30,972 bases of DNA, from IMG/VR virus record IMGVR_UViG_2711768059_000015. One strand, given 5' to 3'. Below are positions 1 to 15,971 of this stretch, one piece after another (within the stretch, counting starts at the first letter, position 1; each line of letters begins with the position of its first letter). Both the position numbers and the translations under genes were made by a program. The notes under the pieces are model-generated. The model searched no databases and was not told the origin of the DNA. It was given only the letters and a program-made list of their open reading frames with translations. This stretch comes from a virus. Taxonomy: Duplodnaviria; Heunggongvirae; Uroviricota; Caudoviricetes.

Positions 1-1314
1 CTAACTTACTGATTTTAATAGACCTCTTGTGTCACTTTGGTGACTATGGGACATCATTGGGACATAATCTGCCAGCTTCTGATTCAGCATGGCGATCTGT
101 TCTGCATTGCTGTCAGTCATCCATGCTCCGTATACATTGAACACCATCTGGGCACTTGCATGGCCCATCTGGCTGGCAATGAAGCTTGGATTTGCTCCGG
201 CAGATAATGACCAGCACGCATAAGTGTGTCGTGACTGGTATGCCTTTCGATACCTGATGCCAGCACGCTTAATGGCTGTTTCCCATGAGTCGCCAATGGA
301 ATCTACCTTGTAGATAAAACCTACCTGTTTGCTTTTTCTAACCACCTGGGGGTTAAATACGAAAGTACATTCATGATTCACTGAACGTCCATATTCACGT
401 AGTTGCACCTTGATGTGGTGCTGCTTACCCAGTCTTGTCATTTCAGCCTGATTTTTCAGGACACTGATAGCGGGCTGGATAAGATGCACAACCCTGTTTG
501 TACTTGCTTCAGTTTTAGGTAGAGTGAACTCACCGAGTTTCGTATAATTGCGCCTGATAGTAATTGTTCCTGCTTTCAGATCGATATCTTCCCAGGCCAG
601 GGAGACCAGTTCACCATGACGCATTCCTGTGTACACAGCCAATGACCACAGGTTTTTTGTCTGCTGATGCCGGCAAGCATCTATCAGGCGAATAAATTCG
701 TCACGAGTTAGCGGATCTGGCTCTGCCCTGGCTTTTTTAAGAGGCTTAATTCTCTCGAAGGGATTTGCTTCTAAGTAACCGTGATCTGCAGCAAACTGGA
801 ACATTCCAGCGATTGTCGTCATGTAATAATTTACTGTGACAACGCTTCGTCCTTTTACTCGAGCTTTACCTTTTGTTGGATTTTGGTATCCGGTCAGCAA
901 ATCTTTCCTGATATACAGCAATTCCTCTTTGGTCACCGTTGACACCAGTCTGCTACCTCCAATTTTCGGAACCATCGTTCTTGCAACGGATTTATAGCGA
1001 TTGAATGCATTTGCAGAGATTTCCATGCGTTTCAGATCCAGCCACTTTTCTTCAAGTTCTTTCACCGTAATTTCTTTTTTATTTACCCCAAAAGCCTTGA
1101 GGTTAGGAGAGTCAGGGAACTGCGCAGCATAATCAAAGTTTCCTGTACGAATGGCAAAACATACAGATGTCCGCAGCTCTCCGGCGATCTTCCTGTTCTT
1201 GACAGTGTCAGGGACACCAAGATTTTCCCTGACACGTTTACCTTTAAAATTAAACCAGATGCGTAATGTGCCGCCGTGGTTTTCGACGCCTGTTGGATAT
1301 TTGACTTTATCCAT
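1..1314 (-). CDS. int: Phage integrase, tyrosine recombinase family
   Basis: Complete 437-aa ORF with stop at 1-3. GGAGGT RBS 5 nt upstream of the ATG at 1314. C-terminal region has the R..H..R..Y-type catalytic pattern (RHTYA, GHAS, VYGAWM). Sits beside an excisionase-like gene at the prophage end. Confidence 0.9.
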   Translation of the reverse strand: MDKVKYPTGVENHGGTLRIWFNFKGKRVRENLGVPDTVKNRKIAGELRTSVCFAIRTGNFDYAAQFPDSPNLKAFGVNKKEITVKELEEKWLDLKRMEISANAFNRYKSVARTMVPKIGGSRLVSTVTKEELLYIRKDLLTGYQNPTKGKARVKGRSVVTVNYYMTTIAGMFQFAADHGYLEANPFERIKPLKKARAEPDPLTRDEFIRLIDACRHQQTKNLWSLAVYTGMRHGELVSLAWEDIDLKAGTITIRRNYTKLGEFTLPKTEASTNRVVHLIQPAISVLKNQAEMTRLGKQHHIKVQLREYGRSVNHECTFVFNPQVVRKSKQVGFIYKVDSIGDSWETAIKRAGIRYRKAYQSRHTYACWSLSAGANPSFIASQMGHASAQMVFNVYGAWMTDSNAEQIAMLNQKLADYVPMMSHSHQSDTRGLLKSVS

Positions 1315-1369
1315 TGATACCTCCAGACGCCCAAGAGCGATACGAGCTTACATATTTCATGGTATTAAA

Positions 1370-1606
1370 TCACCCAGGTTGTTTGTTTTTCATTGAAGAG
1401 ACCCAGGCATCTATTGCTTTTCTGTTATACATACATTCACTGGAAGGTTTTGGATTACCGTCTGGCGATACGTGAATATACTCTCTTCCTACCATCCAGC
1501 ATTCTTTCCGGGCTCGGAGAATTGTGCCAGGTTTGAGCCCGGTAATTGCGATAAGAACGCTTTCACAAACCCATTCATTGGGAGCCAGTTGAATCACATT
1601 GCCCAT
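1370..1606 (-). CDS. xis: Excisionase-like small DNA-binding protein (recombination directionality factor)
   Basis: 78 aa, directly upstream of int on the same strand. TGAGGT RBS. The EW...R...W..GREY pattern resembles the lambda Xis winged-helix motif. Confidence 0.6.
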   Translation of the reverse strand: MGNVIQLAPNEWVCESVLIAITGLKPGTILRARKECWMVGREYIHVSPDGNPKPSSECMYNRKAIDAWVSSMKNKQPG

Positions 1607-1614
1607 GTATTACC

Positions 1615-1761
1615 TCACACAACACTCAGCCCACGGCAGTGGCACCACACTTCAAACATTCGTTTCACAACTTCACGGCAGTAGAAACCGTCAACATCTC
1701 GCGTCAGGTCATAACGATTGCCGTAACGCTGGCGTACCCATAGCTCAAACGCTTTATTCAT
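1615..1761 (-). CDS. Small hypothetical protein (48 aa, Cys/His-containing)
   Basis: Not in the ORF track (<60 aa). ATG at 1761 preceded by an AAGGAAG RBS; stop at 1615-1617. Tightly packed between xis and the upstream gene (3-nt gap to its stop). Product MNKAFELWVRQRYGNRYDLTRDVDGFYCREVVKRMFEVWCHCRGLSVV. Confidence 0.35.
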   Translation of the reverse strand: MNKAFELWVRQRYGNRYDLTRDVDGFYCREVVKRMFEVWCHCRGLSVV

Positions 1762-1764
1762 TCG

Positions 1765-2007
1765 CTACTTCCTTTTCATGGCTCGTAATTTTTTCAGATG
1801 AGCTTCCTGCTCTGTTTCTGCCAGAATTTGTCGGTATTCCTGGTGATCGATCCGTTCAAACGATTCATTAAAATCGTTCATTTTTACCGATTGTGTTCGC
1901 CCATCCATTCTTCTGTACAACACGGTGTTATTTATGCAGCGAATAATTTTTACCGGGTAACCGGCACTGTCGGTATACAGTTGTCCCTGATTAATCAAAG
2001 CAAACAT
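1765..2007 (-). CDS. Hypothetical protein (80 aa)
   Basis: Internal ATG at 2007 of track ORF 1765-2130, with an AGGAG RBS 6-10 nt upstream. The longer 121-aa version would overlap the upstream gene. No family recognised. Confidence 0.45.
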   Translation of the reverse strand: MFALINQGQLYTDSAGYPVKIIRCINNTVLYRRMDGRTQSVKMNDFNESFERIDHQEYRQILAETEQEAHLKKLRAMKRK

Positions 2008-2038
2008 TTTTTCTCCTGCTCTCTGAATAGTGAGAACT

Positions 2039-2410
2039 TCAGAGCCGTATGTTTGTAGCGGGTTCAATACTGATAATTTCTGCTGAGATAAGCATCCCGG
2101 CAAGCCAGAGTTCTCCGGACAGGTCTTCATCCTGACATATCAGTTCGCCAATATTAATGGTGGCCATGATATCTGTTTCCCCTGTGCGCTCATCCTTGAC
2201 TTCTTCATAAGGCAGCGTTGCGTACAGGCTTTCAATAGCGCAACTGATAACATCCAGTCCGGTCAGATTGCCGCCGACAGTAACTTCGAATGTTTCGCGG
2301 TATTCCCATAGTCCGAAAGTTAATCGAACGGTTTGGTTTGCCATGCGTCCGCATGACGTCAGATTCGGGTCATAGTTCATTATTTGCGGTTGAGTATTCT
2401 GGGTGTTCAT
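2039..2410 (-). CDS. Hypothetical protein (123 aa)
   Basis: Track ORF 2039-2485 trimmed to the ATG at 2410 (MNTQNTQ...), which has an AAGGGA RBS at good spacing and does not overlap the SPFH gene. No family recognised. Confidence 0.5.
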   Translation of the reverse strand: MNTQNTQPQIMNYDPNLTSCGRMANQTVRLTFGLWEYRETFEVTVGGNLTGLDVISCAIESLYATLPYEEVKDERTGETDIMATINIGELICQDEDLSGELWLAGMLISAEIISIEPATNIRL

Positions 2411-2450
2411 CTGCATTTCCCTTAGCCCGGCGGCCTGCCGGGCATATAAG

Positions 2451-3278
2451 TTATTTAATCTGGATAAATGGTGTATTGGCACCACTGGTCATGTATTGCG
2501 GCAGTGTACCGTTCCACTTGTTGATGGCTTCCAGCTCCATGACGCCTGGGTTCTGGCGTAGAGCTTCGCCGCGTAAACGAATGGCATCGGCTTCTGCCTG
2601 GGCTTTTGTTCGAATGGCATCAGCCTGTCCGGCAGCTTCCGCACGTAGCATGTTGGCCTCCGCTTCACGTTGCTTGACTTCCTGCTCGCGCTGCAGGGTT
2701 TTCTGGTTTGCCGTGACTTTGGCGTTAATGCTGTCGATAACGGTTGGAGGGTATTCCGGTTTACCTACATAAGAGAGGCTCATTACCTGAATGCCGATGG
2801 GTGTCATCTCTTCCTGAATGTCTTTAAGTGCGGCATCCAGTAGTTCAGACTTGCCGCCGTCGATAAATTTGTCAGTGGTCATTTTGCTGGCCAGCCGATT
2901 GAGTGCGTCGGCAATTTTCTGGCGCAGGTCAGTGTCGGTAATGTCATCCACGCCTTTGCGGTAGGTCTGAAACACCGTGGTAACTTTGGATGGATCAACT
3001 TTGTAGGCCACACCGATGTGATAGCCGATGGTTGTACCGTCACTCATCTGGAAACTGAACGGTTCATCGTAGGTCTTCATTTGTTTGAAGGTGGGGAAGA
3101 TATAAACTTCAGTATTCCAGCCAGTCCAGTAGCGACCAACACCGACCACCTCACCGACACCTTTGTCGTCGCCTAGTTTATTTACCTTGATGCCAACATT
3201 ACCTGGTTCAACGCGATCGCAACCGACAAGGCCAATAGTCGGCAGAACAATGGCTAAAGCAAAAATAATTTTTTTCAT
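2451..3278 (-). CDS. SPFH/band-7 (prohibitin/HflK-C-like) domain lipoprotein
   Basis: 275 aa. N-terminal signal peptide with lipobox (LVGC). Central band-7 core and a C-terminal Ala/Glu/Arg/Gln-rich coiled coil typical of SPFH proteins. AAGGA RBS. Its start overlaps the upstream small membrane gene's stop (ATGA). Confidence 0.8.
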   Translation of the reverse strand: MKKIIFALAIVLPTIGLVGCDRVEPGNVGIKVNKLGDDKGVGEVVGVGRYWTGWNTEVYIFPTFKQMKTYDEPFSFQMSDGTTIGYHIGVAYKVDPSKVTTVFQTYRKGVDDITDTDLRQKIADALNRLASKMTTDKFIDGGKSELLDAALKDIQEEMTPIGIQVMSLSYVGKPEYPPTVIDSINAKVTANQKTLQREQEVKQREAEANMLRAEAAGQADAIRTKAQAEADAIRLRGEALRQNPGVMELEAINKWNGTLPQYMTSGANTPFIQIK

Positions 3279-3463
3279 CTTTTATCCTTAGTGAAAGAAA
3301 GACCCTTGTAAATGGCATAAATGCAGGGCGGGGTCAGAAACGCCAGTGCAAAGCCAGAAATAACTGCTATCGTATCCTTCATGGATATAAGGAACGGAAC
3401 GAATAATCCGTAAATGCATGCGATAATTGCCAGTAAAATTACTATTTTGAAATACAGTCTCAT
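3275..3463 (-). CDS. Small two-helix membrane protein (62 aa), translationally coupled to the SPFH gene
   Basis: Strongly hydrophobic sequence with two predicted TM helices. Stop overlaps the SPFH start (ATGA). Confidence 0.55.
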   Translation of the reverse strand: MRLYFKIVILLAIIACIYGLFVPFLISMKDTIAVISGFALAFLTPPCIYAIYKGLSFTKDKR

Positions 3464-3486
3464 TGGTCTGTGGTATCCCGATATTT

Positions 3487-3594
3487 TTAACCGACTGACA
3501 GCGCAATAAAGAGAATAATGATTTCAGTTAGTGTCAGCACTGTGGCAAGGATTAAAATCAGTTTTACTCTGTTTAATTCACGGTTGCTTTTCAT
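3487..3594 (-). CDS. Tiny single-TM membrane peptide (35 aa)
   Basis: Not in track. ATG at 3594, stop at 3487-3489. Product MKSNRELNRVKLILILATVLTLTEIIILFIALSVG (charged N-terminus then one hydrophobic helix). Candidate -10 TATAAT lies about 30 nt upstream on the minus strand. Confidence 0.35.
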   Translation of the reverse strand: MKSNRELNRVKLILILATVLTLTEIIILFIALSVG

Positions 3595-3639
3595 ATAAAC
3601 GGTTAGTAAAAAATGGAAGAATTATAGTCTTCTTAATAT

Positions 3640-4221
3640 TTAATGTGTCACTGGCGCTTCTGGCATACCATGAGTATTCAGGTCGTTAATCATTTCATCC
3701 AGAAGGAGTTCAAGCCCTTCGCGCCCCATAGCAGAGAGAATGAAACCATTATCAGGATCTGCGATGAGCATTTTTTGATAGAGAAACAGAACTCGCCCCA
3801 TGCCTTCAGTTTCGCCATATTTTTCAATAAATCCCCATTCGACATGGTTTTGCAGGGCAATGCGAAGTGGTCCTGGGTATATACTCATGCAACCATGTTT
3901 CCCCTTATAAATAACTGCGCGATCTGTCGTCCCGTTATCGTTAGGGATATCAATAGTGCCGTTCTTGTTTTCCTCTTCACTGATAAACGTTGCCACATAC
4001 AGCCAGCGCCATTGAGCAACCTTCATATCGACTGAAAATCTTCCCAGGAATCTGGCATCATCGGCTTCAGCAATACATTGCATGATTCTTAAGCCGTGCC
4101 AGTATGGATTGTCGTATTCACCATCATTAAGTCGCTGTACGGCCTCAACATAATCAATGGTTGTATTGTCAATTTTTATGCCATGAGCTGTCGCTTCTGG
4201 TTTGAATTCAAAATTGTTCAT
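3640..4221 (-). CDS. Hypothetical protein (193 aa), AT-rich accessory gene
   Basis: Track ORF 3640-4296 trimmed to the ATG at 4221 (MNNFEFKPE...) with an AAGGA RBS. Start overlaps the stop of the upstream 62-aa gene (ATGA). No family recognised. Confidence 0.6.
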   Translation of the reverse strand: MNNFEFKPEATAHGIKIDNTTIDYVEAVQRLNDGEYDNPYWHGLRIMQCIAEADDARFLGRFSVDMKVAQWRWLYVATFISEEENKNGTIDIPNDNGTTDRAVIYKGKHGCMSIYPGPLRIALQNHVEWGFIEKYGETEGMGRVLFLYQKMLIADPDNGFILSAMGREGLELLLDEMINDLNTHGMPEAPVTH

Positions 4222-5405: not shown

Positions 5406-6095
5406 CTAACCAAATCTGTTTATGTTGAATGGTACTGATGAGATCACTTTAGACTGGATATAAAGCAGAGCTAACCCCTCTTTTTCGATGCTCCATGGTT
5501 GATAATTGGGGTTATCAGATAACACCATGATTTTGCTTCCAATTTTTTGAAGCCTTTTCACGTAGCATTCTCCATCAAAACAAAATGCATAAATACCATC
5601 GCCATCAAAATAAGTTACTGTCTTATCAAGAAAAAGAAGGTCGCCAGGTGAGATTGTGGGAGCCATACTGTCTCCTCTGGCGTTACCTATTTCTATATTT
5701 TTGAATGCCCGATTTCCAACAAGACGTCGGGCATATTCAGGATCAAGTTCTATTGAGCGCACTACATCTATCAAGTCACCACGGACATGAGTTCCATCAC
5801 CGCAACTAAACTCAACATCAAGGACATTAAACACGACGCTATCTGTTCTTGTCTGGTGTTTCTCTTGCGAGGAAAAGGTTGGTGAGGAGTCTTCACCTAA
5901 GAACCAGGATTGTGGATAACCGCTAATCTCTGATAAATGCGCGAGCTTATCACTCCGTGGAAATGTTTTTCCTGTTGTCCAGTACTGCACTGATTGCGCA
6001 CTCACACCTAACTTGCGGGCCAGTTGAGCCTGAGTCCATCCTTTTGCTTTCAGCATCGCGGCTATTCGATTTTCCGTGTTTTTGACGTTCTTCAT
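5406..6095 (-). CDS. cI: CI-type prophage repressor (N-terminal XRE HTH, C-terminal S24 LexA-like peptidase domain)
   Basis: 229 aa. N-terminal HTH (GWTQAQLARKLGVSAQSVQYW). C-terminal S24 autocleavage domain with the catalytic Ser in GDSMAPT and a downstream Lys. Divergent from a Cro-like gene. Confidence 0.9.
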   Translation of the reverse strand: MKNVKNTENRIAAMLKAKGWTQAQLARKLGVSAQSVQYWTTGKTFPRSDKLAHLSEISGYPQSWFLGEDSSPTFSSQEKHQTRTDSVVFNVLDVEFSCGDGTHVRGDLIDVVRSIELDPEYARRLVGNRAFKNIEIGNARGDSMAPTISPGDLLFLDKTVTYFDGDGIYAFCFDGECYVKRLQKIGSKIMVLSDNPNYQPWSIEKEGLALLYIQSKVISSVPFNINRFG

Positions 6096-6228: not shown

Positions 6229-6528
6229 ATGAAAGGAAATGATTACGACGTACTTCGCGCATTAATTGCGCAAAATGCCATTGCACGAAACCTTGGTGTA
6301 ACTCCGCAAGCGGTGAATCAGTGGTTTTCAAAAAACACAATTCCTGCTCGTTTTGTTTTACGCGTATGTGAAGTAGTTGCATGGAAGGTCACGCCACATG
6401 GCTTAAGGCCAGATCTTTATCCTCACCCTGAAGATGGAATTCCTGATTCGTTACGCAAAATTTCAAATCCAAGCCTAGCGCGCACGGAAGATGGGCAGAG
6501 TGATTCATCAGAAATGTCCACGCGATGA
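6229..6528 (+). CDS. cro: Cro-like repressor (YdaS/Cro HTH family)
   Basis: 99 aa, divergent from cI. N-terminal HTH (LGVTPQAVNQWFS) typical of the YdaS/Cro-type family. Confidence 0.75.
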   Translation: MKGNDYDVLRALIAQNAIARNLGVTPQAVNQWFSKNTIPARFVLRVCEVVAWKVTPHGLRPDLYPHPEDGIPDSLRKISNPSLARTEDGQSDSSEMSTR

Positions 6529-6604
6529 ACGGTTACTGAACGAAAAAAGAAAAGCCGGGCCGCACTCCGTCAGCCCGACTTATTCTGATTAGTAAGGGGA
6601 TTTC

Positions 6605-7459
6605 ATGATGATCAATAAACAAAAAATAGTCAACCCTGAAAACTTGCCAGTTATTGAGTGGCAGGGAGTACGTGTAGTTACCACCGAAACGTTGGCGGCG
6701 GGATATGGAACAACGCCAATCCGTATACAACAGAACTACATTCGAAACGAAGATCGTTTCGTTGAGGGTAAACACTTTTTCAAAATCAGCGGTGATGAGC
6801 TGAAATCTTTCCGACTATCTTTTAGCGAGTCGGTTAATAAACATACAACATCACTTGTCCTCTGGACAGAACGCGGCGCTGCCCGCATGTCAAAAATCGT
6901 CGATACAGACGAGGCCTGGTCGTTCTTCGAAAAAATGGAGCAGGCGTATTTTCGTAAAGCAACGCCTTCTTCAAACACTATTCCAGACTTTGACGATCCG
7001 ATCGCTGCTGCTGAAGCGTGGATTGAAGCCAAAAAATCCGAACGCCTTGCTCTCGGGTATGCAGAGCGTCAGGCTCGCTACATCAGCAAACTCGAAAGCC
7101 ATCTCGCCGATGGCATCACTCCTGTGCAGTTCTGCAAACAACTCAACGGTGTAAACACTCGTCAGATTAATGCGTTCCTTGAAGAGCGTAACTGGCTGTA
7201 TGACGACCGTCCGGAGGCTATGTATCCGCGCTGGCGTGTAAAAGCGTATGCACGTGACCAATACCTGACTGAGCGTTCTGGGCAGGTTGAGCAGGAAAAC
7301 GGGGAAATGCGCGAGATTTTCAAACCACTCCTGAAGAAAAAAGGTGCCGCCTGGTTATATCGCCATTATCTGAACGGTGAACTACCGATGAAGAAAACAT
7401 GGGATGGGCTGTTTACCCATAACACTGAGCTCGCGAATCTTTTACAGGAGAACAAATAA
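6605..7459 (+). CDS. Antirepressor-like protein (N-terminal ORF6N domain, C-terminal KilA-C/Ant domain)
   Basis: 284 aa with AAGGGGA RBS. N-terminal region carries the ORF6N-type LWTERGA motif; the C-terminal half resembles the phage antirepressor Ant/KilAC domain. Confidence 0.75.
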   Translation: MMINKQKIVNPENLPVIEWQGVRVVTTETLAAGYGTTPIRIQQNYIRNEDRFVEGKHFFKISGDELKSFRLSFSESVNKHTTSLVLWTERGAARMSKIVDTDEAWSFFEKMEQAYFRKATPSSNTIPDFDDPIAAAEAWIEAKKSERLALGYAERQARYISKLESHLADGITPVQFCKQLNGVNTRQINAFLEERNWLYDDRPEAMYPRWRVKAYARDQYLTERSGQVEQENGEMREIFKPLLKKKGAAWLYRHYLNGELPMKKTWDGLFTHNTELANLLQENK

Positions 7460-7668
7460 TGCAAACCAAGACGTGTGTAACTGGTGATGTCGATCTGAAA
7501 CCTTGCCCGTTCTGCGGAAATCCGGAAGTACAACTCATTGAGGTGAAATATTTTCTGGATGGCGATGATGGTTATTACGTCGCATGTACTTGCTGTAACG
7601 CAAACCAGATCCCTGATTCGAAAGAACGTGCTGTTCATGACTGGAATCAGCGCGAAAACGCGGATTGA
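7459..7668 (+). CDS. lar: Lar-family restriction alleviation protein
   Basis: 69 aa with CPFCG and CTCC cysteine pairs characteristic of Lar-family zinc-ribbon proteins. Start overlaps the upstream stop (TAATG). Confidence 0.7.
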   Translation: MQTKTCVTGDVDLKPCPFCGNPEVQLIEVKYFLDGDDGYYVACTCCNANQIPDSKERAVHDWNQRENAD

Positions 7669-7685
7669 CGGCGAGTAGGTACAAA

Positions 7686-8537
7686 ATGATCCGCAACCAA
7701 CATATTGATTCTGCAATTTCGGGACGTTACACTGTTCCAGCACCTTATAAAGCGGGGGCCGGGCGTGGAAACCCGAAATTCAATATAGAGCACAACCGCG
7801 CTCATGCGGTTTTTTCGTGTCATGAGCATCGTTACGCCCAAATTATGGTGGGGCGTGCAGGGCCAACTTCGGTTGGGCCGGGTTCTATGTTGACCGGTAT
7901 TTCCACCCCTGTACGTCTCACCACCTATATGGTCGTGGAAAGCCTTGGTGGTGAGTTCATTGAATTCAACATAGGGGCTGTCACCATGACTACTCTCCCA
8001 ACCCTCTCTCAACCTGAAATCACGATTATCAATGGTCGTGTTGTCACCACATCTCTTGCAGTTTCTAATTACTTTACTAAACGGCATGAGCGGGTTTTAG
8101 ACAGAATTCGAAACCTCGAATGTTCCGCTGAATTTACTGAACACAATTTTGTGTTAAGTGAATACACCGACGCATCAGGCCGCAAACTTCCCTGCTACCA
8201 AATCACCCGCGACGGTTTTGCGTTTCTTGCCATGGGCTTCACTGGCAAACGTGCAGCCAGGTTCAAAGAGGCATACATCAACGCCTTTAACCAGATGGAG
8301 AAGAATTTATCTGGTGGTGACGCGGTTGATATGTCAGCTGTTGCACGAAACGCCAGAGGCGTATACCTGCATTTGCGTGAAATCCATCAAATCTGGAAAA
8401 GCCAGCTTTACCCCATGCTTAAGGCCGTTGAATCTCCGCTGGCGAGCAAGCTGTATGACCGTGTAGGAGATGCTGTTTTTGGCGCTGCACTTGTTGATTC
8501 CAGACTTAATGGTTCTGACAAGGAGGCGCACCCATGA
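7686..8537 (+). CDS. rha: Rha-family phage regulatory protein; start uncertain (ATG 7686 or ATG 7986)
   Basis: The Rha-like domain starts at the ATG at 7986 (MTTLPTLSQPEITIINGRVVTTSLAVSNYFTKRHERVLDRIRNL). The frame stays open upstream to 7686, but that 100-aa extension does not look like a typical domain. The track's 7665 start is a TTG. Confidence 0.6.
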   Translation: MIRNQHIDSAISGRYTVPAPYKAGAGRGNPKFNIEHNRAHAVFSCHEHRYAQIMVGRAGPTSVGPGSMLTGISTPVRLTTYMVVESLGGEFIEFNIGAVTMTTLPTLSQPEITIINGRVVTTSLAVSNYFTKRHERVLDRIRNLECSAEFTEHNFVLSEYTDASGRKLPCYQITRDGFAFLAMGFTGKRAARFKEAYINAFNQMEKNLSGGDAVDMSAVARNARGVYLHLREIHQIWKSQLYPMLKAVESPLASKLYDRVGDAVFGAALVDSRLNGSDKEAHP

Positions 8538-8758
8538 TTCGCCGCATCGTTAATTCCCTGTATCACCGATACAACCGTTGCCCCCGTGTGGGGCAGTGGT
8601 TCGCCACCAGCAACGGTCACGTTCTGCGGGTTTGCCTAGTCAACGCTGAAAGCCAGAAAGTCGTGTGCGAACTACAGGGGCGTAGCTACACCATCAGTTA
8701 CCCGCTGGCGGTATTTCTGTCTGGAAAAATGTTTAAGCGTCTGGGAGGTGCCGTGTGA
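8534..8758 (+). CDS. Hypothetical protein (74 aa)
   Basis: Overlapping start/stop (ATGA) with rha, and its stop overlaps the replication gene start. No family recognised. Confidence 0.45.
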   Translation: MIRRIVNSLYHRYNRCPRVGQWFATSNGHVLRVCLVNAESQKVVCELQGRSYTISYPLAVFLSGKMFKRLGGAV

Positions 8759-9747
8759 GCCGTTACGCTCCTACACCTGAAGTTATGGCTATTGGCCAAC
8801 TCAATATTTCTGGCAATGTCACACCAGCGAACTGGTGGAAACATATTCGGCTACCAAGTGGTCGTCCGGATGCGACTGCCATTGCGCTGCTTTCAGAGAT
8901 TGTTTACTGGTACCGCCCGACAGAAGTCAGGGATGAGCATACCGGGGCTTTACTGGGATATCGCAAGCGTTTTCAGGGTGACAAGCTGCAAAGAAGCTAT
9001 CAGGCGTTTGCTGAACAGTTTGGCTTTGGGAAAAGGGAAACCGCAGATGCGCTGAAGCGTCTTCGTGATGCTGGGTTTATTACTCTGGATTTACGTACGG
9101 TGGAAATGCTAGACGGGGTGAAATGCAGCAATATTTTGTTTGTCGGGATCAACCCACAGGCAATTGCTGCCATCACCACACCTTCTTCTGTTTCGCCAGA
9201 AAGTAACAGCAATAACTCAATCAGCGATACAGCTATTACGTTAAAACGGAACACCCCCCAACGTCATAACGGAACAGGGGATACGCCGAATGTTGATACA
9301 AATACAGAGATTACTACAGAGATTACAACGGAGACTAAAAACACTATTGGAGCATCCGCTGACGCGTCTGCACCAGCGCGTTCTGCCCGACAGGAATATT
9401 CACCGGAATTTGAACAGGCCTGGCAGGAATATCCCAAACGTGCTGGTGGTAATTCCAAGTCAGCAGCCTTCAAAGCCTGGAAAGCCCGTATCAGGGAGGG
9501 AATAAAACCGGAGACCATGCTTGATGGTGTGAAGCGGTATGCCGCCTGGGTACGTGCTACAGGAAATACCGGCACACAGTTCGTGAAGCAGGCTGCGACG
9601 TTCTTTGGACCCGATCGTCACTTCGAAGATTACTGGCAACAGCCAGCCGCTCCCGGAGGTGGGCGACAGCGACAGGTCGATGTCCTGGCTGGCCTGGGAG
9701 CCATGTCTGACAAATTCGGTAAATCCAGTGACAAACTGACATTCTGA
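8755..9747 (+). CDS. Phage replication initiation protein (O-like replisome organiser)
   Basis: 330 aa. GTG start with GGAGG RBS 6 nt upstream. The C-terminal segment (EYSPEFEQAWQEYPKRAGG...FKAWKARIREG) is a motif I associate with phage replication initiators. Located directly upstream of DnaC- and DnaB-like genes. Contains internal tandem repeats. Confidence 0.7.
   Translation: MSRYAPTPEVMAIGQLNISGNVTPANWWKHIRLPSGRPDATAIALLSEIVYWYRPTEVRDEHTGALLGYRKRFQGDKLQRSYQAFAEQFGFGKRETADALKRLRDAGFITLDLRTVEMLDGVKCSNILFVGINPQAIAAITTPSSVSPESNSNNSISDTAITLKRNTPQRHNGTGDTPNVDTNTEITTEITTETKNTIGASADASAPARSARQEYSPEFEQAWQEYPKRAGGNSKSAAFKAWKARIREGIKPETMLDGVKRYAAWVRATGNTGTQFVKQAATFFGPDRHFEDYWQQPAAPGGGRQRQVDVLAGLGAMSDKFGKSSDKLTF
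9301..9336. repeat. Three tandem 12-bp repeats inside the replication initiator gene (candidate ori iterons)
   Basis: ACAGAGATTACT / ACAGAGATTACA / ACGGAGACTAAA, encoding TEITTEITTET. Confidence 0.5.
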
Positions 9748-9757
9748 GGTGACAGCG

Positions 9758-10636
9758 ATGATGACGATTAACCAACGTGAGAAACAAACAAGACTACAGG
9801 CGCGAATGGATGAGTTACGGGCAGAGATTGCATTTGCTCAGAATGGCGAAAAGCCATGGCCTTACCGCGCCTGCCGGGAATCTGAAGGGGTTGGATGCTG
9901 CGAAAAACACGGTAAATATCGTACGCATATACTGGTGTGGGATGATCGGCAGGGGGGCGCTGTCTCAAAAATTTCCCGCTGTCCGGAGTGTCTGGTGGAT
10001 GAAATGGATGTGACACATCGGACTCTGGTTGCAATGAAAGCTGATGTGCTGATTGAGAATGCTGGTGTTGCCTGTAGGTTTCGCGACTGTGAGTTTGAAA
10101 ACTATCAGGAGATTAACTCTGATGCAGCCAGAAATCTTGCTGCCTGCCGCCGCTATGCAGAGAGCTGGGAGGATGTTCTGGCTAACGGTACCAGTCTTGT
10201 TCTGACAGGCAGTTGTGGTACCGGAAAAAATCATCTGGCTGTGGCTATGGCAAAACACATCATCCGTAACCATCTGGCCAGTGTGGAGATTACTGATGTG
10301 ATGCGCCTTACCCGTGCTGTGAAAAACTGCTGGCGGAATGACAGCGAAAAAACAGCGGATGAAGTTATTGAGCATTATGCGTCATTGGATTTGCTGATCA
10401 TCGACGAAGTCGGCGTTCAGTTTGGCAGCGCGGCTGAAATGGCTATTTTGCAGGAAATTATCAATGCCCGGTACGAAAGCATCCTGCCCACCATCCTGAT
10501 CAGCAACCTTTCACCGGAAGAGTTGTGGGCGTTCATCAGCCCACGCATTGCCGACAGGATCACAGACGGGGGACGCAACTGGTTGTCGTTTAACTGGCCC
10601 AGCTATCGTGCGCATATTGGAGGTGTGGCTGCATGA
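9758..10636 (+). CDS. DnaC-like helicase loader (IstB-like AAA+ ATPase)
   Basis: Walker A GSCGTGKNHLAVA and Walker B LLIIDEVG. ATG at 9758 with GAGGTG RBS (the track ORF begins at a GTG at 9749). Confidence 0.85.
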   Translation: MMTINQREKQTRLQARMDELRAEIAFAQNGEKPWPYRACRESEGVGCCEKHGKYRTHILVWDDRQGGAVSKISRCPECLVDEMDVTHRTLVAMKADVLIENAGVACRFRDCEFENYQEINSDAARNLAACRRYAESWEDVLANGTSLVLTGSCGTGKNHLAVAMAKHIIRNHLASVEITDVMRLTRAVKNCWRNDSEKTADEVIEHYASLDLLIIDEVGVQFGSAAEMAILQEIINARYESILPTILISNLSPEELWAFISPRIADRITDGGRNWLSFNWPSYRAHIGGVAA

Positions 10637-12024
10637 CCACTCCAGTATGGCGTAACGATGATCTGGAAGGCGCTGTCATTGGCGCGTTTTTTCTGCGTGG
10701 GGCAGATCATGAAGTGATGGATATTCTGGCCACACTGCCAGCGGACGTTTTTTCTGTACGAGCGTATAGGGATATCTACACAGGCATCTGCCGACAGGCT
10801 CGTGTTTCAGGTGTGATTGATCCTGTGCTGCTGTGTAATGAAATGCCGGAACTTGCTCCGGTGATTACTGATACCGGGCGTAAAACCTGGGTGAAGTCTT
10901 CACTGGAGCACTATGTTGCAGCGTTGCGGCGCAATGCTGCATTGCGTGATGCAGAAAAAACACTGAATGAGGCGCTGCAGAAATTACGTGATGCGCATAC
11001 CTGTGAAGCAGCTGAAGATGTCCTGAAGGATGCGCAGAACATGATGGCTTCATTGTCGACGGAAAAGGGCATTATTCAGCCGGTACATATTGATGATGTG
11101 CTTCCGGAGGTGGTTGAGCGTGTTGAATGCCGGAATCAGGGACTGGAGAAATCCAGAACGTTGATGACCGGTATTGAGGAGCTGGACGCAAAAACAGGTG
11201 GCATGGAGCCCGGCGACCTGGTGTTCATTGCGGCTCGTCCGTCAATGGGCAAAACCGAACTGGCGCTGGATATCATCGACAAGGTGACTGAGCAGGGGCA
11301 TGGTGTTCTTCTGTTCACAATGGAAATGGCGAACATCCAGATTGGTGAACGCATGGTATCTGCGGCTGGAGGAATGCCGGTATCACGCCTGAAATCTGTC
11401 ACTCACTTTGAAGATGAAGACTGGGCGCGTTTCTCACAAGGGGTGGGACGGATGACCGGTCGCAATATCTGGATGGTGGACCAGGCGAATCTGACCATTG
11501 ATGAGATATGCGCAACAACGAAACACCACTTGATTAAACATCCGGAAACGGCGCTGGTGGTGGTTGATTATCTCGGGCTGATAAAAACCCGGAGCACGGG
11601 GCGTCATGACCTTGCCGTGGGTGAAATCTCAAAGGGGCTTAAAGGCCTGGCAAAATCCGGTGGTTTTCCGTTGATTGCGCTGAGCCAGCTCTCCCGCGGT
11701 GTGGAGTCCAGGCCCAATAAACGCCCCATGAACTCAGACCTGAAAAATTCCGGAGAAATAGAGGCGGATGCAGACATCATTCTGATGCTTTACAGGGATG
11801 AAGTGTACAACCCGGATACGCAGGCCAGGGGCATCGCAGAAATCAATATCACGAAACAACGTAACGGTTCTCTGGGGACAATTTACCGGCGTTTTTATAA
11901 CGGACATTTTCTGCCTGTAGACCAGGAAAGCGCACAGGTTCTTTCCACCCCAATGCAGCCGCCTCAGCCGCGCAGATACAGCAATAAACGAACCAACAGT
12001 AGTAAGATGGAGCGTTTCTTTTGA
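10633..12024 (+). CDS. dnaB: Replicative DNA helicase, DnaB family
   Basis: 463 aa. Walker A ARPSMGKTE, DnaB-type motifs (VVVDYLGLI, LSQLSR arginine finger region). GGAGGTG RBS; overlaps the DnaC-like stop. Confidence 0.9.
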   Translation: MTTPVWRNDDLEGAVIGAFFLRGADHEVMDILATLPADVFSVRAYRDIYTGICRQARVSGVIDPVLLCNEMPELAPVITDTGRKTWVKSSLEHYVAALRRNAALRDAEKTLNEALQKLRDAHTCEAAEDVLKDAQNMMASLSTEKGIIQPVHIDDVLPEVVERVECRNQGLEKSRTLMTGIEELDAKTGGMEPGDLVFIAARPSMGKTELALDIIDKVTEQGHGVLLFTMEMANIQIGERMVSAAGGMPVSRLKSVTHFEDEDWARFSQGVGRMTGRNIWMVDQANLTIDEICATTKHHLIKHPETALVVVDYLGLIKTRSTGRHDLAVGEISKGLKGLAKSGGFPLIALSQLSRGVESRPNKRPMNSDLKNSGEIEADADIILMLYRDEVYNPDTQARGIAEINITKQRNGSLGTIYRRFYNGHFLPVDQESAQVLSTPMQPPQPRRYSNKRTNSSKMERFF

Positions 12025-12035
12025 ACAACCAGACA

Positions 12036-12278
12036 ATGACTTTTACCCCTGAACAATTACGCAAACAGGCGCAGGAAATGCTGCGACAGGCGGAACAACT
12101 GGAAAAATCAGGCGTAACAAAAGATGCCATTCGTCGGGATATGGTACCCGCGCTCAGAGAACTGATGCAGGCAAAACACCGCGCACAAAAAGCGGTGGAT
12201 GAGCTGGTGGATTGTGTGGCAGAGCTGGAAACAAAAGTTGGAAAATTTGAAAAATTGGTGCAGGGGGTACTGCGTTGA
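12036..12278 (+). CDS. Hypothetical coiled-coil protein (80 aa)
   Basis: ATG at 12036; predicted helical, charged sequence. No family recognised. Confidence 0.45.
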   Translation: MTFTPEQLRKQAQEMLRQAEQLEKSGVTKDAIRRDMVPALRELMQAKHRAQKAVDELVDCVAELETKVGKFEKLVQGVLR

Positions 12279-12649
12279 TGCGCTTAGAGTGTGTTTTACC
12301 TTACCCACCGACGGTGAACACCTACTGGCGTCGTCGTGGCAGCACATATTTTGTATCAAAAGCAGGGGAGCGTTATCGCCGGGATGTGGCGCTTATTGTT
12401 CGCCAGCAGCGACTGAAATTAAACCTGTCCGGAAGGCTGGCAATAAAAATTATTGCAGAGCCGCCGGATAAGCGCCGTCGTGACCTGGACAATATTCTGA
12501 AAGCACCACTGGATGCGCTGACGCATGCCGGACTACTTATAGACGACGAGCAGTTTGATGAAATCAATATTGTGCGCGGACTGCCTGTTCCTGGTGGGCG
12601 GTTGGGCGTGAAGATTTACGAAATTACAGGTGATAACGATGGTGCGTGA
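12278..12649 (+). CDS. rusA: RusA-family Holliday junction resolvase
   Basis: PPTVNTYW and RRRDLDN motifs typical of RusA. ATG at 12278 overlaps the previous stop. Confidence 0.85.
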
Positions 12650-13025
12650 TATTCAGCAGGTTATGGAGCGGTGGGGATCATGGGCTGCGAACAATCACGA
12701 AGATGTGTCATGGGCGTCAATCGCTGCTGGTTTTAAAGGATTAATCCCGCCGAAAGTGAAATCACGCCCTCAGTGTTCTGATGATGATGCAATGATAATT
12801 TGTGGCTGTATGGCCCGGTTGAACAAGAAAAATCAGGATTTGCACGATTTGTTGGTGGATTATTACGTAGGTGGAATGACTTTTATGGGGTTGGCACGAA
12901 AGCATGGGTGTTCGGATACCTGTATTGGCAAGCGCCTGCAGAAAGCGGAAGGGGTTATTGATGGCATGTTGATGATGCTTGATATCCGACTAGAGATGGA
13001 CAGATACGTAGAACGAATCATGTAG
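12639..13025 (+). CDS. Q: Late gene antiterminator Q-like protein
   Basis: About 128 aa, Cys-rich (CSDDD...ICGC...C..C). Canonical position before a promoter plus terminator pair and the late genes. ATG at 12639 with AGGTGA RBS. Confidence 0.65.
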
Positions 13026-13029
13026 GAGC

Positions 13030-13059
13030 TTGACCAGACACATTGTCCGGGGCTATATT
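13030..13059 (+). promoter_or_regulatory. Candidate late promoter PR' (Q utilisation region follows)
   Basis: TTGACC, 18-nt spacer, TATATT, immediately after Q. Downstream hairpin CGCCAG-N6-CTGGCG (13066-13083) could be part of a qut-like site. Confidence 0.45.
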
Positions 13060-13120
13060 CCTCACGCGCCAGCAAAATCTGGCGTCGGGATTGGCGTCCC
13101 GGATGAAAAAGGCGACAACA

Positions 13121-13140
13121 GACGCGCCAGCGTCTTTTTT
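13121..13140 (+). terminator. Rho-independent terminator (tR'-like) downstream of PR'
   Basis: GACGC-GCCA-GCGTC hairpin followed by TTTTTT. Predicts a short leader RNA of about 75 nt from PR'. Confidence 0.5.
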
Positions 13141-13298
13141 ATTGTCGTTTGCACTGTCACATCTCAATGGTGGGCTGTGTGGGGGCGGAGCGATCCGCGC
13201 CGGTTCCTTTTTCCCGGTTACGCCAACCCTGCACAGTTCACCACCATACTGATTGGCGTCAGCAGTGGTGATGATTCACATAGAAAAAGGATCATCCT

Positions 13299-13787
13299 AT
13301 GGCTATTCAAATCTCAGTTGAAACTCTTTCCCCGATCACCCATAACCAAATCCCTGTCATTACTACCGAGCTTTTGGCACAACTTTATGGCACCGAAACT
13401 AATAACATCAAAGTGAACTATACACGCAATGCCGAGCGTTTTGTTTGTGGGAAACACTACTTCAAATTGGAAGGGGCTGAGTTGCGGGAATTTAAGAACA
13501 AGGTTACTCAAAGTAACTTAGTTGCACCGCGTACAAAGCACCTCATCCTCTGGACAGAACGCGGAGCAGTCCGTCACGCCAAAATGCTGGAAACCGATCA
13601 GGCGTGGGAAGTGTTCGAAAAACTGGAAGACTGTTATTTCAGCCAAAAACAACCACCAGCAGCACAAAACACCCCAACCCAAAATGATGGATGCGCATTA
13701 CTGATCCACTTCGATAAACACGGTCAGGTCGACTTCACGGAAAAACTACCCGCCGATGCGATGGTATGCACTCTGGAACGGTTTTAA
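13299..13787 (+). CDS. ORF6N-domain protein (antirepressor N-terminal domain only)
   Basis: 162 aa. Paralogous to the N-terminus of the 6605-7459 protein (shared NY.RN.ERFV.GKH.FK and LILWTERGA motifs). AAAGGA RBS. Confidence 0.7.
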   Translation: MAIQISVETLSPITHNQIPVITTELLAQLYGTETNNIKVNYTRNAERFVCGKHYFKLEGAELREFKNKVTQSNLVAPRTKHLILWTERGAVRHAKMLETDQAWEVFEKLEDCYFSQKQPPAAQNTPTQNDGCALLIHFDKHGQVDFTEKLPADAMVCTLERF

Positions 13788-13862
13788 AAATTTTCCCCGA
13801 ACGCTTTACGATCGTAAAAAGTTGAATATCCTGTTAAGAGTGGTTACTACGCCAAACAGCTT

Positions 13863-13889
13863 AAACCCGCCACTGAGCGGGTTTTTTTA
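13863..13889 (+). terminator. Rho-independent terminator
   Basis: AACCCGC-CACTGA-GCGGGTT followed by a T7 run. Confidence 0.6.
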
Positions 13890-14010
13890 TGCCTGAAAAA
13901 CGGTACAGGACGTTAAACGCGCTGGTGGTTGCGAATACTGGTCTTTCGGCTTGTATTTTTGTAAATCGATATATACTTATCTTGTGACCAGTAATGTCAG
14001 GGCAATTGAT

Positions 14011-14754
14011 ATGAATGAAGCTTGTTCTGTTGTTTTTGTTCATTCCCCGTTTGTTGTGCTCTTTGAAGGAAAAGAGCTCTCTCTGGAAAGTGGTAGTGCA
14101 CTTCTTGTCAGGGGGGGAGCTGGATCGTTATTGCCCTTTTCGGAATGTTTTCGGCGAATAAGTCTCAGTGAATCGACAATTATCCGTTACCTGTTGTGTG
14201 GAGACGAAAAACAGGATGTAGTTTTAGTCCGGCAAATACCACGATATCTTTGCGTGAGTTTTCCCAAGGCAGAATTGATGGGCATCCTGATTGATTATCT
14301 TTGTGAGGAAAAGATTCATACGGACAATTTAGCGGAAATGCTTTCCTTTTCGTGTCTGGCGTTTTTCTCATCAGAGAAAATGTTTTCGTCGTTTCTGACC
14401 GCGTGTATTGGCAATATTAGTGACAGGCTTAGTGCATTGTTTCGTACGGACATTGCAGCAAACTGGACTCTGAGAGATGTGTCTTCGCGGTTATGTATCA
14501 GTGAAAGTTTGTTAAAAAAAAGACTGAAAGAAGAAGGCACCTGTTTCAGTGAGTTGTTGCTTACAGAGAGAATGAGAATGGCAGCAATGCTGTTGAATCA
14601 ATCTCGTTGCGCCATCAACAGAATCGCTGCTCAGTGTGGCTATAATTTTACATCTTATTTTATCAGCGTATTCAGGAGTTATTTTGGTGTTACACCGGCA
14701 GGTTACAGGATGGCTGCATTCAATGAGATGAGTTTAAGTGTTACTCAAGAATAA
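14011..14754 (+). CDS. AraC-family transcriptional regulator, AppY-like (cargo/moron gene)
   Basis: ATG at 14011. N-terminus MNEACSVVFV and C-terminal AraC HTH (SESLLKKRLKEEGTCFSELL...AAQCGYNFTSYFISVFRSYFGVTP) closely resemble the E. coli prophage-encoded regulator AppY as I recall it. Markedly AT-rich relative to its neighbours; flanked by terminators. Confidence 0.8.
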   Translation: MNEACSVVFVHSPFVVLFEGKELSLESGSALLVRGGAGSLLPFSECFRRISLSESTIIRYLLCGDEKQDVVLVRQIPRYLCVSFPKAELMGILIDYLCEEKIHTDNLAEMLSFSCLAFFSSEKMFSSFLTACIGNISDRLSALFRTDIAANWTLRDVSSRLCISESLLKKRLKEEGTCFSELLLTERMRMAAMLLNQSRCAINRIAAQCGYNFTSYFISVFRSYFGVTPAGYRMAAFNEMSLSVTQE

Positions 14755-14778: not shown

Positions 14779-14804
14779 AGGCTCGCTGCGGCGGGCCTTT
14801 TTTA
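14779..14804 (+). terminator. Rho-independent terminator
   Basis: GC-rich hairpin (GGCTCGC...GCGGGCC) followed by TTTTTT. Confidence 0.5.
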
Positions 14805-14933
14805 TATCCGCGCCACGTCCGGCGCACATCACATCAGATAACACCACACAAAAGGTATCTGCGGGTGCCTTTGACGGGGTGTTGTTTTTTTACGGGCCGA
14901 CAGTGGCCCTTTTTTATTTACAGGAGAAAAAGT

Positions 14934-15326: not shown

Positions 15327-15591
15327 CCTTCCCGGATTGCTGAATGTGGCGTTATGCACGGTTATCGTGCTGACGCTCTTTTTTTATCGTCGTCGTGATT
15401 CCAGACATAAACCGCTGATGTCATGGCTGGCCTGGTTGCTGATGCTGCTGTATGCCTTTGCGCCCCTCAGCTATCTGTGTGGTCGCCCGTTAGCAACGGG
15501 CTGGCTGGAAGTGTTTTTTAACCTGCTGTTCTGCGTGCTGGTGATACGCGCACGCGGGAACGTCACAAAAATCTTTCCATTGTTGAGGTGA
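15316..15591 (+). CDS. Second small membrane protein of the lysis cassette (holin/antiholin-like)
   Basis: ATG at 15316, overlapping the holin 3' end. Two or three hydrophobic helices. Immediately precedes the endolysin. Confidence 0.5.
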   Translation: MLSNLPGLLNVALCTVIVLTLFFYRRRDSRHKPLMSWLAWLLMLLYAFAPLSYLCGRPLATGWLEVFFNLLFCVLVIRARGNVTKIFPLLR

Positions 15592-15593
15592 AT

Positions 15594-15971
15594 ATGTCGG
15601 GTAAATTCAGATTCAGTCGTCGCAGCGAAAAGAATCTGGAGGGCGTTAAACCACAGCTGGTTGCTGTCGTTCGCCGTGCGCTGGAGCTGACGGAGGTTGA
15701 TTTCGGTATTACGGAAGGGCTGCGCACGAAAGAACGCCAGAAACAGCTGGTCGCGGAAGGGAAAAGCCAGACCATGAACAGCCGCCACCTGACCGGTGAT
15801 GCGGTGGATGTTGTTGCCTGGGTTGGCAGCCAGGTGTCATGGGACTTGCCTCTGTATGAGAAAATAGCGCAGGCATTTAAGCAGGCTGCCGCAGAGCTGA
15901 ATACCCCCATCGAATGGGGCGGTGAGTGGCGGTCATTAAAGGATGGGCCTCACTTTCAGTTGAAACGATAA
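15594..15971 (+). CDS. Endolysin, peptidase M15-type (L-alanyl-D-glutamate peptidase-like)
   Basis: About 125 aa. His and Asp residues in the SRHLTGDAVDV segment and a C-terminal WGGEW motif fit small zinc peptidase endolysins. Confidence 0.75.
   Translation: MSGKFRFSRRSEKNLEGVKPQLVAVVRRALELTEVDFGITEGLRTKERQKQLVAEGKSQTMNSRHLTGDAVDVVAWVGSQVSWDLPLYEKIAQAFKQAAAELNTPIEWGGEWRSLKDGPHFQLKR

Follow-up and report, generated by a model that had tools for sequence, protein, structure and literature searches.

We analysed the two ORF6N-domain genes, here called ORF6N-1 and ORF6N-2, of a 30,972-nucleotide (nt) stretch of viral DNA (Caudoviricetes; IMG/VR record IMGVR_UViG_2711768059_000015), the whole of which is referred to as the window. 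The window is a lambdoid prophage of Escherichia coli with its integration site beside mlrA/yehW, and near-identical copies of it are present in about a dozen complete genomes, mostly from cattle or farm sources. After a leftward cI-like gene, the rightward order is a cro-like gene, ORF6N-1, lar, a Rha-domain gene, replication genes, rusA, Q, ORF6N-2, an AraC-family gene and then holins, endolysin and structural genes (Table 1). Three antirepressor-type genes are carried by this prophage. An original prediction had taken a promoter and a terminator directly after Q for the late promoter PR' and its terminator tR', and ORF6N-2 for the first gene after them, expressed late under Q control. The evidence described here indicates that ORF6N-2 is probably the protein part of a portable, self-promoted, RNA-gated antirepressor cassette that is inserted between Q and PR'.

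An IsrK/C4 RNA module between Q and ORF6N-2

The interval between Q (Q21/Q933W family, named after bioRxiv 10.1101/651190) and ORF6N-2 contains an IsrK-type small RNA (sRNA) followed by a C4-type antisense RNA, and the c4-a1b1 motif (RF03163, 52.2 bits, 13053-13105) overlaps the IsrK match. These three Rfam matches, as well as the isrK and C4 matches of a further module in front of the Rha-domain gene (module 1, the one before ORF6N-2 being module 2), are all above their gathering scores. The promoter-like site of module 2, PisrK, ends 7 nt ahead of the IsrK start, and a terminator scan placed the IsrK terminator at 13120-13135. The elements previously read as PR' (13030-13059) and tR' (13120-13135) are this predicted promoter and terminator, with C4 coming next. 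IsrK contains the element b1 (UUGGCGU, 13091-13097) in its second loop and a1 (GAAAAAGG) at 13105-13112, while C4 has a' (CCUUUUUC, 13206-13213) in the loop of hairpin 2 and a single-stranded b' (ACGCCAA, 13220-13226). Element a' is complementary to both a1 and a2, and b' to both b1 and b2, where b2 and a2 lie in the leader of ORF6N-2 and a2 is the Shine-Dalgarno sequence of that gene, shown in a predicted hairpin loop. The minimum free energy fold of the whole leader reproduces the IsrK hairpins, the terminator and the C4 structure with a' and a2 in loops (z = -4.3). A small open reading frame (ORF) that starts at the 5' end of C4 has 34 codons and stops at 13271, 28 nt before the ATG of ORF6N-2. 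Its counterpart in E. coli CFSAN029787 has only 16 codons, neither length nor frame being conserved, and we found no icd-like gene, in that no conserved leader ORF lies between C4 and the antirepressor start.

The same cassette is found in other positions. From the -35 region of the promoter to about codon 116 it is 84% identical in nucleotide sequence to a copy in the nin region of the Shiga toxin (Stx) phage PA28, and in PA28 and many other Stx phages it sits 3 kb upstream of their Q. It follows Q genes of two unrelated families, PF06530 here and Q82-like in the Salmonella prophage Gifsy-1. Since the cassette occurs both far upstream of Q and after unrelated Q genes, its promoter would be part of the cassette rather than of Q; that a single conserved promoter holds binding sites for unrelated Q proteins is not plausible.

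A PR' homologue downstream of ORF6N-2

The sequence TTTACGATCGTAAAAATCTGCATATCATGATAAGAGTGGTTAC...AACCCGCCGATGCGCGGGTTTTTTT comes directly after the Q stop codon in both PA28 and Sakai Sp5. Positions 13803-13890 of the window are homologous to this post-Q sequence and begin 16 nt past the ORF6N-2 stop codon, and a matching segment is also found at the corresponding place in CFSAN029787. The PR' start of Sp5, mapped by differential RNA sequencing (dRNA-seq), and the 3' end of its tR', mapped by Term-seq, are 258 nt apart (Sy et al. 2020, PMC7547250). Counting 258 nt back from the T-run of the second terminator in Sakai leads to a position 7 nt downstream of TATCAT, so that PR' of this Q type would be TTTACG-N16-TATCAT. 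The corresponding start in the window is predicted near 13839, and the segment includes the conserved hairpin (13863-13884) with seven T behind it. The cassette has taken the place of the final ~13 codons of Q together with the spacer that leads to the -35 element. Because the PR' homologue (13805-13890) follows the stop codon of ORF6N-2 (13787), ORF6N-2 is placed between Q and PR' and would not be a late gene. Phages ev017 and PhiR40_1 have a Q of about 81% identity, yet unrelated sequence follows Q in both, indicating that the type of PR' is not strictly tied to the N-terminal domain of Q.

Table 1. Features discussed in the text; positions are those of the window unless another sequence is named
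Feature	Position	Strand	Basis
CI-type repressor, helix-turn-helix (HTH) + S24 peptidase	5406..6095	-	Pfam Peptidase_S24 4e-17, HTH_3; XRE family regulator in sibling prophage annotation
Cro-like regulator, gene 1 of rightward early operon	6229..6528	+	Pfam YdaS_toxin/P22_Cro matches
ORF6N-1, ORF6N + KilAC/ANT antirepressor-type, directly after cro	6605..7459	+	Pfam; PHROG 63 'anti-repressor Ant' 1e-46, residues 2-278
19-nt exact run containing the shared 17-mer	6858..6876 = 13546..13564	+	codes for LWTERG motif
Putative promoter of module 1, TTGATT-17-TACACT	7705..7733	+	read from sequence; aligned with PisrK of other modules; below consensus-scan threshold
IsrK-type sRNA, module 1 (terminator 7794-7811)	7740..7816	+	Rfam RF01394 57.7 bits, gathering score 50; terminator scan
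C4-type antisense RNA, module 1	7841..7928	+	Rfam RF01695 82.4 bits, gathering score 45
Predicted C4-1 targets in Rha-gene leader: b2 GUGGAAA 7935-7941, a2 CAACAUAG 7967-7974	7935..7974	+
Rha-domain antirepressor/regulator gene, putatively gated by module 1	7986..8537	+	ATG aligned with starts of other modules; Pfam Phage_pRha 1.9e-30
Antiterminator Q, Q21/Q933W family	12630..13025	+	Pfam PF06530 5.6e-52; ~80% amino acid identity to Q of Stx2 phages
Putative PisrK of module 2, TTGACC-18-TATATT	13030..13059	+	promoter scan 10/12; conserved in PA28 nin-region copy and Gifsy-1
IsrK-type sRNA, module 2	13066..13140	+	Rfam RF01394 79.4 bits
C4-type antisense RNA, module 2	13163..13248	+	Rfam RF01695 74.0 bits, gathering score 45
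Predicted C4-2 targets: b2 UUGGCGU 13253-13259, a2 GAAAAAGG 13283-13290	13253..13290	+
ORF6N-2, AnrP-type antirepressor gene, C-terminally truncated	13299..13787	+	186-aa allele comparison; family alignments; PGAP flag; PHROG 2379
Predicted late promoter PR': -35 TTTACG 13805-13810, -10 TATCCT 13827-13832	13805..13832	+	homology to post-Q sequence in PA28, Sakai Sp5
PR'-proximal intrinsic terminator AAACCCGCC..GGCGGGTTT + T7	13863..13890	+	terminator scan; alignment, conserved with Stx phages
AraC-family regulator moron, first gene downstream of PR'	14011..14754	+	Pfam HTH_18/HTH_AraC; start from PGAP
isrJ	L005 (Gifsy-1) 33480-33406; L089 1237-1310; L090 1233-1311		Rfam

Truncation of ORF6N-2

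The ORF6N-2 protein is 96% identical to a 186-amino-acid (aa) allele in CFSAN029787, minus the last 24 residues. At the DNA level the difference is a clean in-frame gap of 72 bp, with the original stop codon and the downstream sequence kept. ORF6N-2 covers positions 1-163 of the 187 of PHROG 2379; the 186-aa allele matches AnrP end to end with 57% identity, and the family as a whole consists of proteins of 184-195 aa in Escherichia, Salmonella, Citrobacter and Cronobacter that can be aligned over their entire length. The C-terminal ~65 residues of the family are more conserved than the ORF6N domain, and the 24 deleted residues are among the best conserved. An AlphaFold model of the 186-aa allele is of moderate quality, with a confident N-terminal domain and a predicted local distance difference test score (pLDDT) of 46-64 in the C-terminal domain; the deleted residues make up the last helix and one half of the helix before it, in this low-confidence part of the model. 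A position that is invariant in the family is also altered in ORF6N-2 (A91V), and A94T or A102S occurs in other 162-aa variants. The Prokaryotic Genome Annotation Pipeline (PGAP) flags ORF6N-2 as a pseudogene with a missing C-terminus. That the second copy might be a pseudogene had been named as an outcome that would tell against the original prediction. The deletion, A91V and the PGAP flag speak for this and the open frame against it, and the alignments suggest that ORF6N-2 is probably impaired or decaying. The corresponding truncated ORF6N gene of E. coli strain UTAK-5 (1268-4155) is in addition split by the insertion sequence (IS) ISEc23 (IS66 family).

A second RNA module and the a/b code

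Module 1 lies between the Lar-type restriction-alleviation gene (7459-7668), which follows ORF6N-1, and the Rha-domain gene. Its IsrK contains b1 (GUGGAAA, 7765-7771) and a1 (CAAUAUAG, 7781-7788), and its C4 contains a' (CUAUGUUG, 7885-7892) in a hairpin loop and b' (UUUCCAC, 7900-7906). Element a2 of this module abuts the Shine-Dalgarno sequence of the Rha gene. The mechanical ORF 7665-8537 wrongly takes in the RNA genes of module 1. The Pfam Phage_ASH match (residues 22-117 of that ORF; 7728-8015) coincides exactly with the IsrK and C4 of module 1, the PHROG 821/995 profiles reach ~150 aa upstream of the true Rha start at 7986, and PGAP annotates an 'ash family protein' over such an RNA module in strain E21845. 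Pfam Ash and the N-terminal parts of PHROG 821/995 seem, from these coincidences, to be partly translated RNA genes.

To describe pairing specificity we compared seven modules, namely the two of the window, two further ones in a sibling prophage of E21845, and those of PA28, CFSAN029787 and Gifsy-1, and scored pairing as element-by-element pair counts. There are four b types and three a types among the seven, and a2 is at or abuts the Shine-Dalgarno sequence. Cognate pairing was found in all seven modules, with b'-b1 and b'-b2 pairing at 7/7 positions and a'-a2 at 8/8 (7/7 in Gifsy-1). Pairing of a' with a1 is slightly weaker overall, being 8/8, 7 plus one G.U (module-1 type) or 6/7 (Gifsy-1), and non-cognate b elements pair at only 2-5 of 7 positions. 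The target sequences of the two window modules differ from each other but are compensated within each module, and by these counts the two modules look orthogonal, with no cross-talk predicted. Duplex energies of whole C4 RNAs with whole leaders were also tried and set aside, being dominated by unrelated stem sequences and not discriminating cognate from non-cognate pairs. A MAFFT alignment that placed b2 elements of different types one column off register was likewise set aside. The sibling prophage of E21845 has three IsrK-C4 modules (9576-9764, 10229-10416 and 15467-15649). The two in tandem before its Rha gene share a but differ in b (UUGGCGU versus GUGAGAA), indicating that a and b specificities assort independently.

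The two ORF6N genes and their shared DNA

Both ORFs proved real as first described, with a shared N-terminal ORF6N domain (PF10543; Pfam cut-off 27.8 bits) at residues 16-98 of ORF6N-1 (E 1.6e-20, 73.7 bits) and residues 12-96 of ORF6N-2 (E 2.3e-21, 76.3 bits). ORF6N-1 has 284 aa, the exact protein being present on 73 contigs, and its ANT/KilAC match (PF03374, residues 171-255) is marginal at 27.8 bits against a cut-off of 25.3. The second copy lacks this domain, as had been stated: ORF6N is the sole domain of ORF6N-2 in the Pfam search, which gave no match to PF03374. A PDB sequence search with ORF6N-1 gave no match. The pairwise BLASTP alignment of the two proteins has 57 identities in 129 positions (44%, E 1e-34) and is confined to the N-terminal ~130 residues, so that the similarity extends beyond a few residues. 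The paralogy of the two genes is real and ordinary.

The stretch of DNA that the genes had been said to share is the 17-mer CTCTGGACAGAACGCGG, which occurs exactly twice in the window (6860-6876 and 13548-13564, 1-3 nt from the positions first given), with none expected in shuffled sequence, and which lies in the 19-nt exact run of Table 1. Outside this run the codon alignment has 53% nucleotide identity and the second-longest exact run is 9 nt, which marks the paralogues as old. The 17-mer is also found in Gifsy-1 anrP and further ORF6N genes and so reflects conservation throughout the family rather than a recent duplication. ORF6N is joined to varied C-terminal domains, KilAC in ORF6N-1, P22_AR_C in PA28 gp40 and the AnrP type in ORF6N-2, and the junction lies immediately past a conserved CYFSQ motif. 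On the sequence comparisons, the two genes are best described as old mosaic modules that were acquired independently.

Proposed mechanism

By analogy with Gifsy-1 and the P1/P7 immI system, we propose that PisrK of module 2 fires independently of Q and that the majority of its transcripts end at the IsrK terminator, giving the IsrK sRNA. Read-through would give an RNA comprising C4 and the ORF6N-2 mRNA. The loop element a' and the single-stranded b' of C4 would pair with a2 and b2 of the leader, and translation would be blocked at the ribosome binding site. As a1 and b1 would be decoys of the C4 targets, abundant IsrK may lift this block, an effect that experiments have shown for Gifsy-1. The ORF6N-2 protein would then inactivate a phage repressor and set off the early cascade that leads to Q. 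An antirepressor that starts the cascade yielding Q would act before Q and PR', not after them.

Alternative explanations

By the original prediction, the region 13030-13135 is PR'/tR' and ORF6N-2 is the first late gene under Q antitermination. An antirepressor among late genes would in any case have a precedent, the late region of P22 being home to immI, whose ant gene is controlled by Mnt, Arc and sar RNA. A promoter-like site 5 nt past the Q stop codon, followed by an intrinsic terminator, resembles the textbook lambdoid PR'/tR', and Gifsy-1 IsrK has been described as the product of an antitermination-regulated promoter (PMC7547250). We nevertheless consider late expression under Q very improbable given that Stx phages have the promoter-sRNA-C4 unit in their nin region, a long way ahead of Q, that it follows Q proteins of unrelated families, and that the homologue of the mapped Q933W-type PR' is downstream of ORF6N-2. 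The equivalent downstream position in Gifsy-1 is occupied by isrJ, which lies 16 nt after the Q stop codon in cassette-less phages. Several points weigh against a self-promoted cassette placed ahead of PR'. The -10 element of PR' here (TATCCT) is weaker than that of Sp5 (TATCAT), and a Q-binding element could not be located for this PR'. The roles given to the promoter, the terminator and the RNA pairing derive from homology and complementarity, and N- or Q-modified polymerases arriving from upstream could also transcribe ORF6N-2. The ATGA overlap with orf45 on which translation of anrP depends in Gifsy-1 is absent here, and the detailed mechanism may differ from the one there. Finally, the reading frame of the 162-aa allele remains open; this allele occurs on about 185 contigs, in five or more variants, and may keep a function.

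This last point leads to the proposal that the 162-aa protein is a fully functional short antirepressor, for which ORF6N and the remaining half of the C-terminal domain would suffice and the truncation would be neutral or adaptive. The deletion is in frame with the original stop codon retained, the short form is widespread (the contigs and variants just given, with 12 complete genomes at >=99.7% identity), and its ORF6N domain score equals that of full-length relatives. Such a protein would, however, have lost residues that are among the best conserved of the family and that span the last helix and half of the preceding one in the model (pLDDT 46-64); the singleton substitutions at invariant positions, the IS insertion in the gene of one relative and the PGAP flag also count against it, and full function seems unlikely. 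Even less credible, to the point of being nearly negligible, is a recent duplication within the prophage, with the shared DNA as an active substrate for deleting the intervening 6.7 kb. The two genes do carry a 19-nt exact direct repeat, and ORF6N genes are mosaic around the LWTERG-coding motif, one natural example being the AnrP-type gene of P0008/TUM9757, with its ORF6N-1-like central segment. However, beyond the motif the 53% nucleotide identity points to old paralogues, the 17-mer is shared by anrP of Salmonella Gifsy-1, and a search of 5,426 complete E. coli genomes with an artificial ORF6N-1::ORF6N-2 junction gave no recombinant. For RecA-dependent exchange to be efficient in E. coli, roughly 23-27 bp are usually needed, and 19 bp falls below this. 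The suggestion that the repeat is a substrate for recombination thus holds in part: the 19-nt identity is a poor substrate inside one prophage, while exchange among ORF6N genes evidently occurs on an evolutionary time scale, to judge from the mosaic sequences. The reading of ORF6N-2 as the product of an RNA-gated cassette between Q and PR' is retained below.

Neighbouring genes and other observations

The CI-type repressor is likely to represent the target class of the antirepressors. ORF6N-1 is an ordinary early-operon gene right after cro. Between cro and its start there is a strong intrinsic terminator on the minus strand (6581-6552, 11-bp stem and T-run), and a promoter-like site on the same strand (TTGACT-17-CATCAT, 6633-6605) overlaps the start itself. 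This arrangement suggests a short minus-strand RNA from 6552-6633 that, in the manner of P22 sar, would lie antisense to the ribosome binding site of ORF6N-1. Distant relatives gave no support for such a sar/OOP-like antisense RNA at the ORF6N-1 start, the region being unmatched among phage records. The Stx-phage small RNA 24B_1 maps to the lom region and is unrelated.

The exact LexA box CTGT-N8-ACAG is absent from the whole window, and no one-mismatch site lies near either ORF6N start; matches with one mismatch number 18 in the window versus 10.5 expected by chance. The sequence CTGAAAAACGGTACAG at 13893-13908 (CTG-N10-CAG, one mismatch to the LexA-box core) is found just past the PR'-proximal terminator and is probably a coincidence, with no conservation in CFSAN029787.

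The AraC-family gene has a GC content of about 41% versus about 50% in its flanks, and two terminators (14779-14798 and 14894-14909) separate it from the holin gene. It occupies the slot right after PR' where Stx phages have tRNAs and stx. Sixty-five of 5,426 E. coli genomes contain it, and the AraC-like genes of phages mEp332 and ev099 are 37-40% identical to it.

Implications

A promoter and a terminator directly after Q are not necessarily PR' and tR', and a plausible mis-annotation is corrected here. In this prophage they would form an sRNA gene that gates an antirepressor, and the antirepressor gene would thus be part of the decision to induce rather than of the late programme. Two RNA switches of differing specificity, both of the P1 immI/Gifsy-1 IsrK type, appear to be present in this E. 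coli prophage lineage. The RNA-gated antirepressor module is already a known kind of system and no new kind is described; the value of the analysis lies in the correct placement and a few testable refinements. Tentatively, and with somewhat less confidence than we would need to favour the idea, IsrK/C4 cassettes may as a rule insert precisely between Q and its cognate PR' across unrelated Q families of lambdoid prophages (examples being the Q933W type in the window and CFSAN029787 and the Q82 type of Gifsy-1), with the two or three combinatorial a/b switches of one prophage acting as orthogonal RNA locks on different antirepressors. If this were true, the published view of IsrK as an antitermination-regulated product would need revision. 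Cross-immunity or cross-induction at the RNA level would also become possible with co-resident phages that share the a/b code, for instance Stx phages, and a shared code could account for the retention of the RNA part in spite of the decay of the protein.

Comparison with known systems

The closest counterpart is Gifsy-1, where anrP is transcribed from the isrK promoter once the IsrK terminator is read through, the long transcript is silent in translation, the short IsrK switches translation on in trans, and AnrP then brings about induction of the prophage and of antQ (Hershko-Shalev et al. 2016, PMC4825925). The Gifsy-1 order antQ-isrK-orf45(STnc1160)-anrP-isrJ, on the minus strand and with a c4-a1b1 match at isrK, is the order of parts in the window: Q, an IsrK with its own promoter and terminator, a C4-type RNA, an ORF6N antirepressor and the region of a Q-proximal leader RNA. 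The intergenic lengths are nearly equal (272 versus 273 nt) and the b1/b'/b2 elements are identical (UUGGCGU/ACGCCAA). The two differ in Q, which is Q82-like in Gifsy-1 and of PF06530 here, and in a, which is AUCACCG there and GAAAAAGG here. In Gifsy-1, orf45 (45 codons) is ATGA-coupled to anrP, whereas the window has no small ORF coupled in this way and a2 is the antirepressor's own Shine-Dalgarno sequence. The window protein is also truncated by 24 residues, AnrP (STM2616) having 187 aa, and a Q933W-type PR' follows in place of isrJ.

The immI region of P1/P7 (c4, icd, ant) likewise has its C4 RNA inside the leader of the antirepressor transcript, with each target present in two copies, one upstream (a1, b1) and one at the ribosome binding site (a2, b2), and its heteroimmunity specificity comes from a few co-varying bases (PMC12197685). 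The element that carries the module here is a lambdoid prophage, not a plasmid prophage like P1; it lacks an icd-like gene, its antirepressors are of the ORF6N or Rha type, and a1 and b1 are found on an sRNA of their own, IsrK, which has its own terminator. Ant of Stx phages (PA28 gp40, ORF6N + P22_AR_C) has the same IsrK/C4 leader with identical a and b elements, but its C-terminal domain is P22_AR_C and its cassette lies in the nin region upstream of Q. The Q933W-type PR'-tR' leader (StxS; Sy et al. 2020, PMC7547250) shares the -35, the -10, the initial transcribed region and the first hairpin with the window. It differs in that a 0.8-kb cassette separates PR' from Q here and that an AraC-family moron is downstream, versus the rest of StxS, tRNAs and stx.

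The segment after anrP in Gifsy-1, including isrJ, is homologous to the Q stop codon and the next ~100 nt in cassette-less phages. In two of these, Enterobacter phage CobraSix and Klebsiella phage ST11-VIM1phi8.1, Rfam isrJ starts 16 nt past the Q stop codon. As isrJ directly follows Q where the cassette is missing, IsrJ would be the PR' leader RNA of the Q82 type and the cassette would have been inserted between Q and PR' in Gifsy-1 too. The alignments suggest that IsrJ is the PR'-tR' leader RNA of Q82-type phages, analogous to the 6S RNA of lambda and to StxS, and these comparative data argue against IsrK being the product of an antitermination-regulated promoter.

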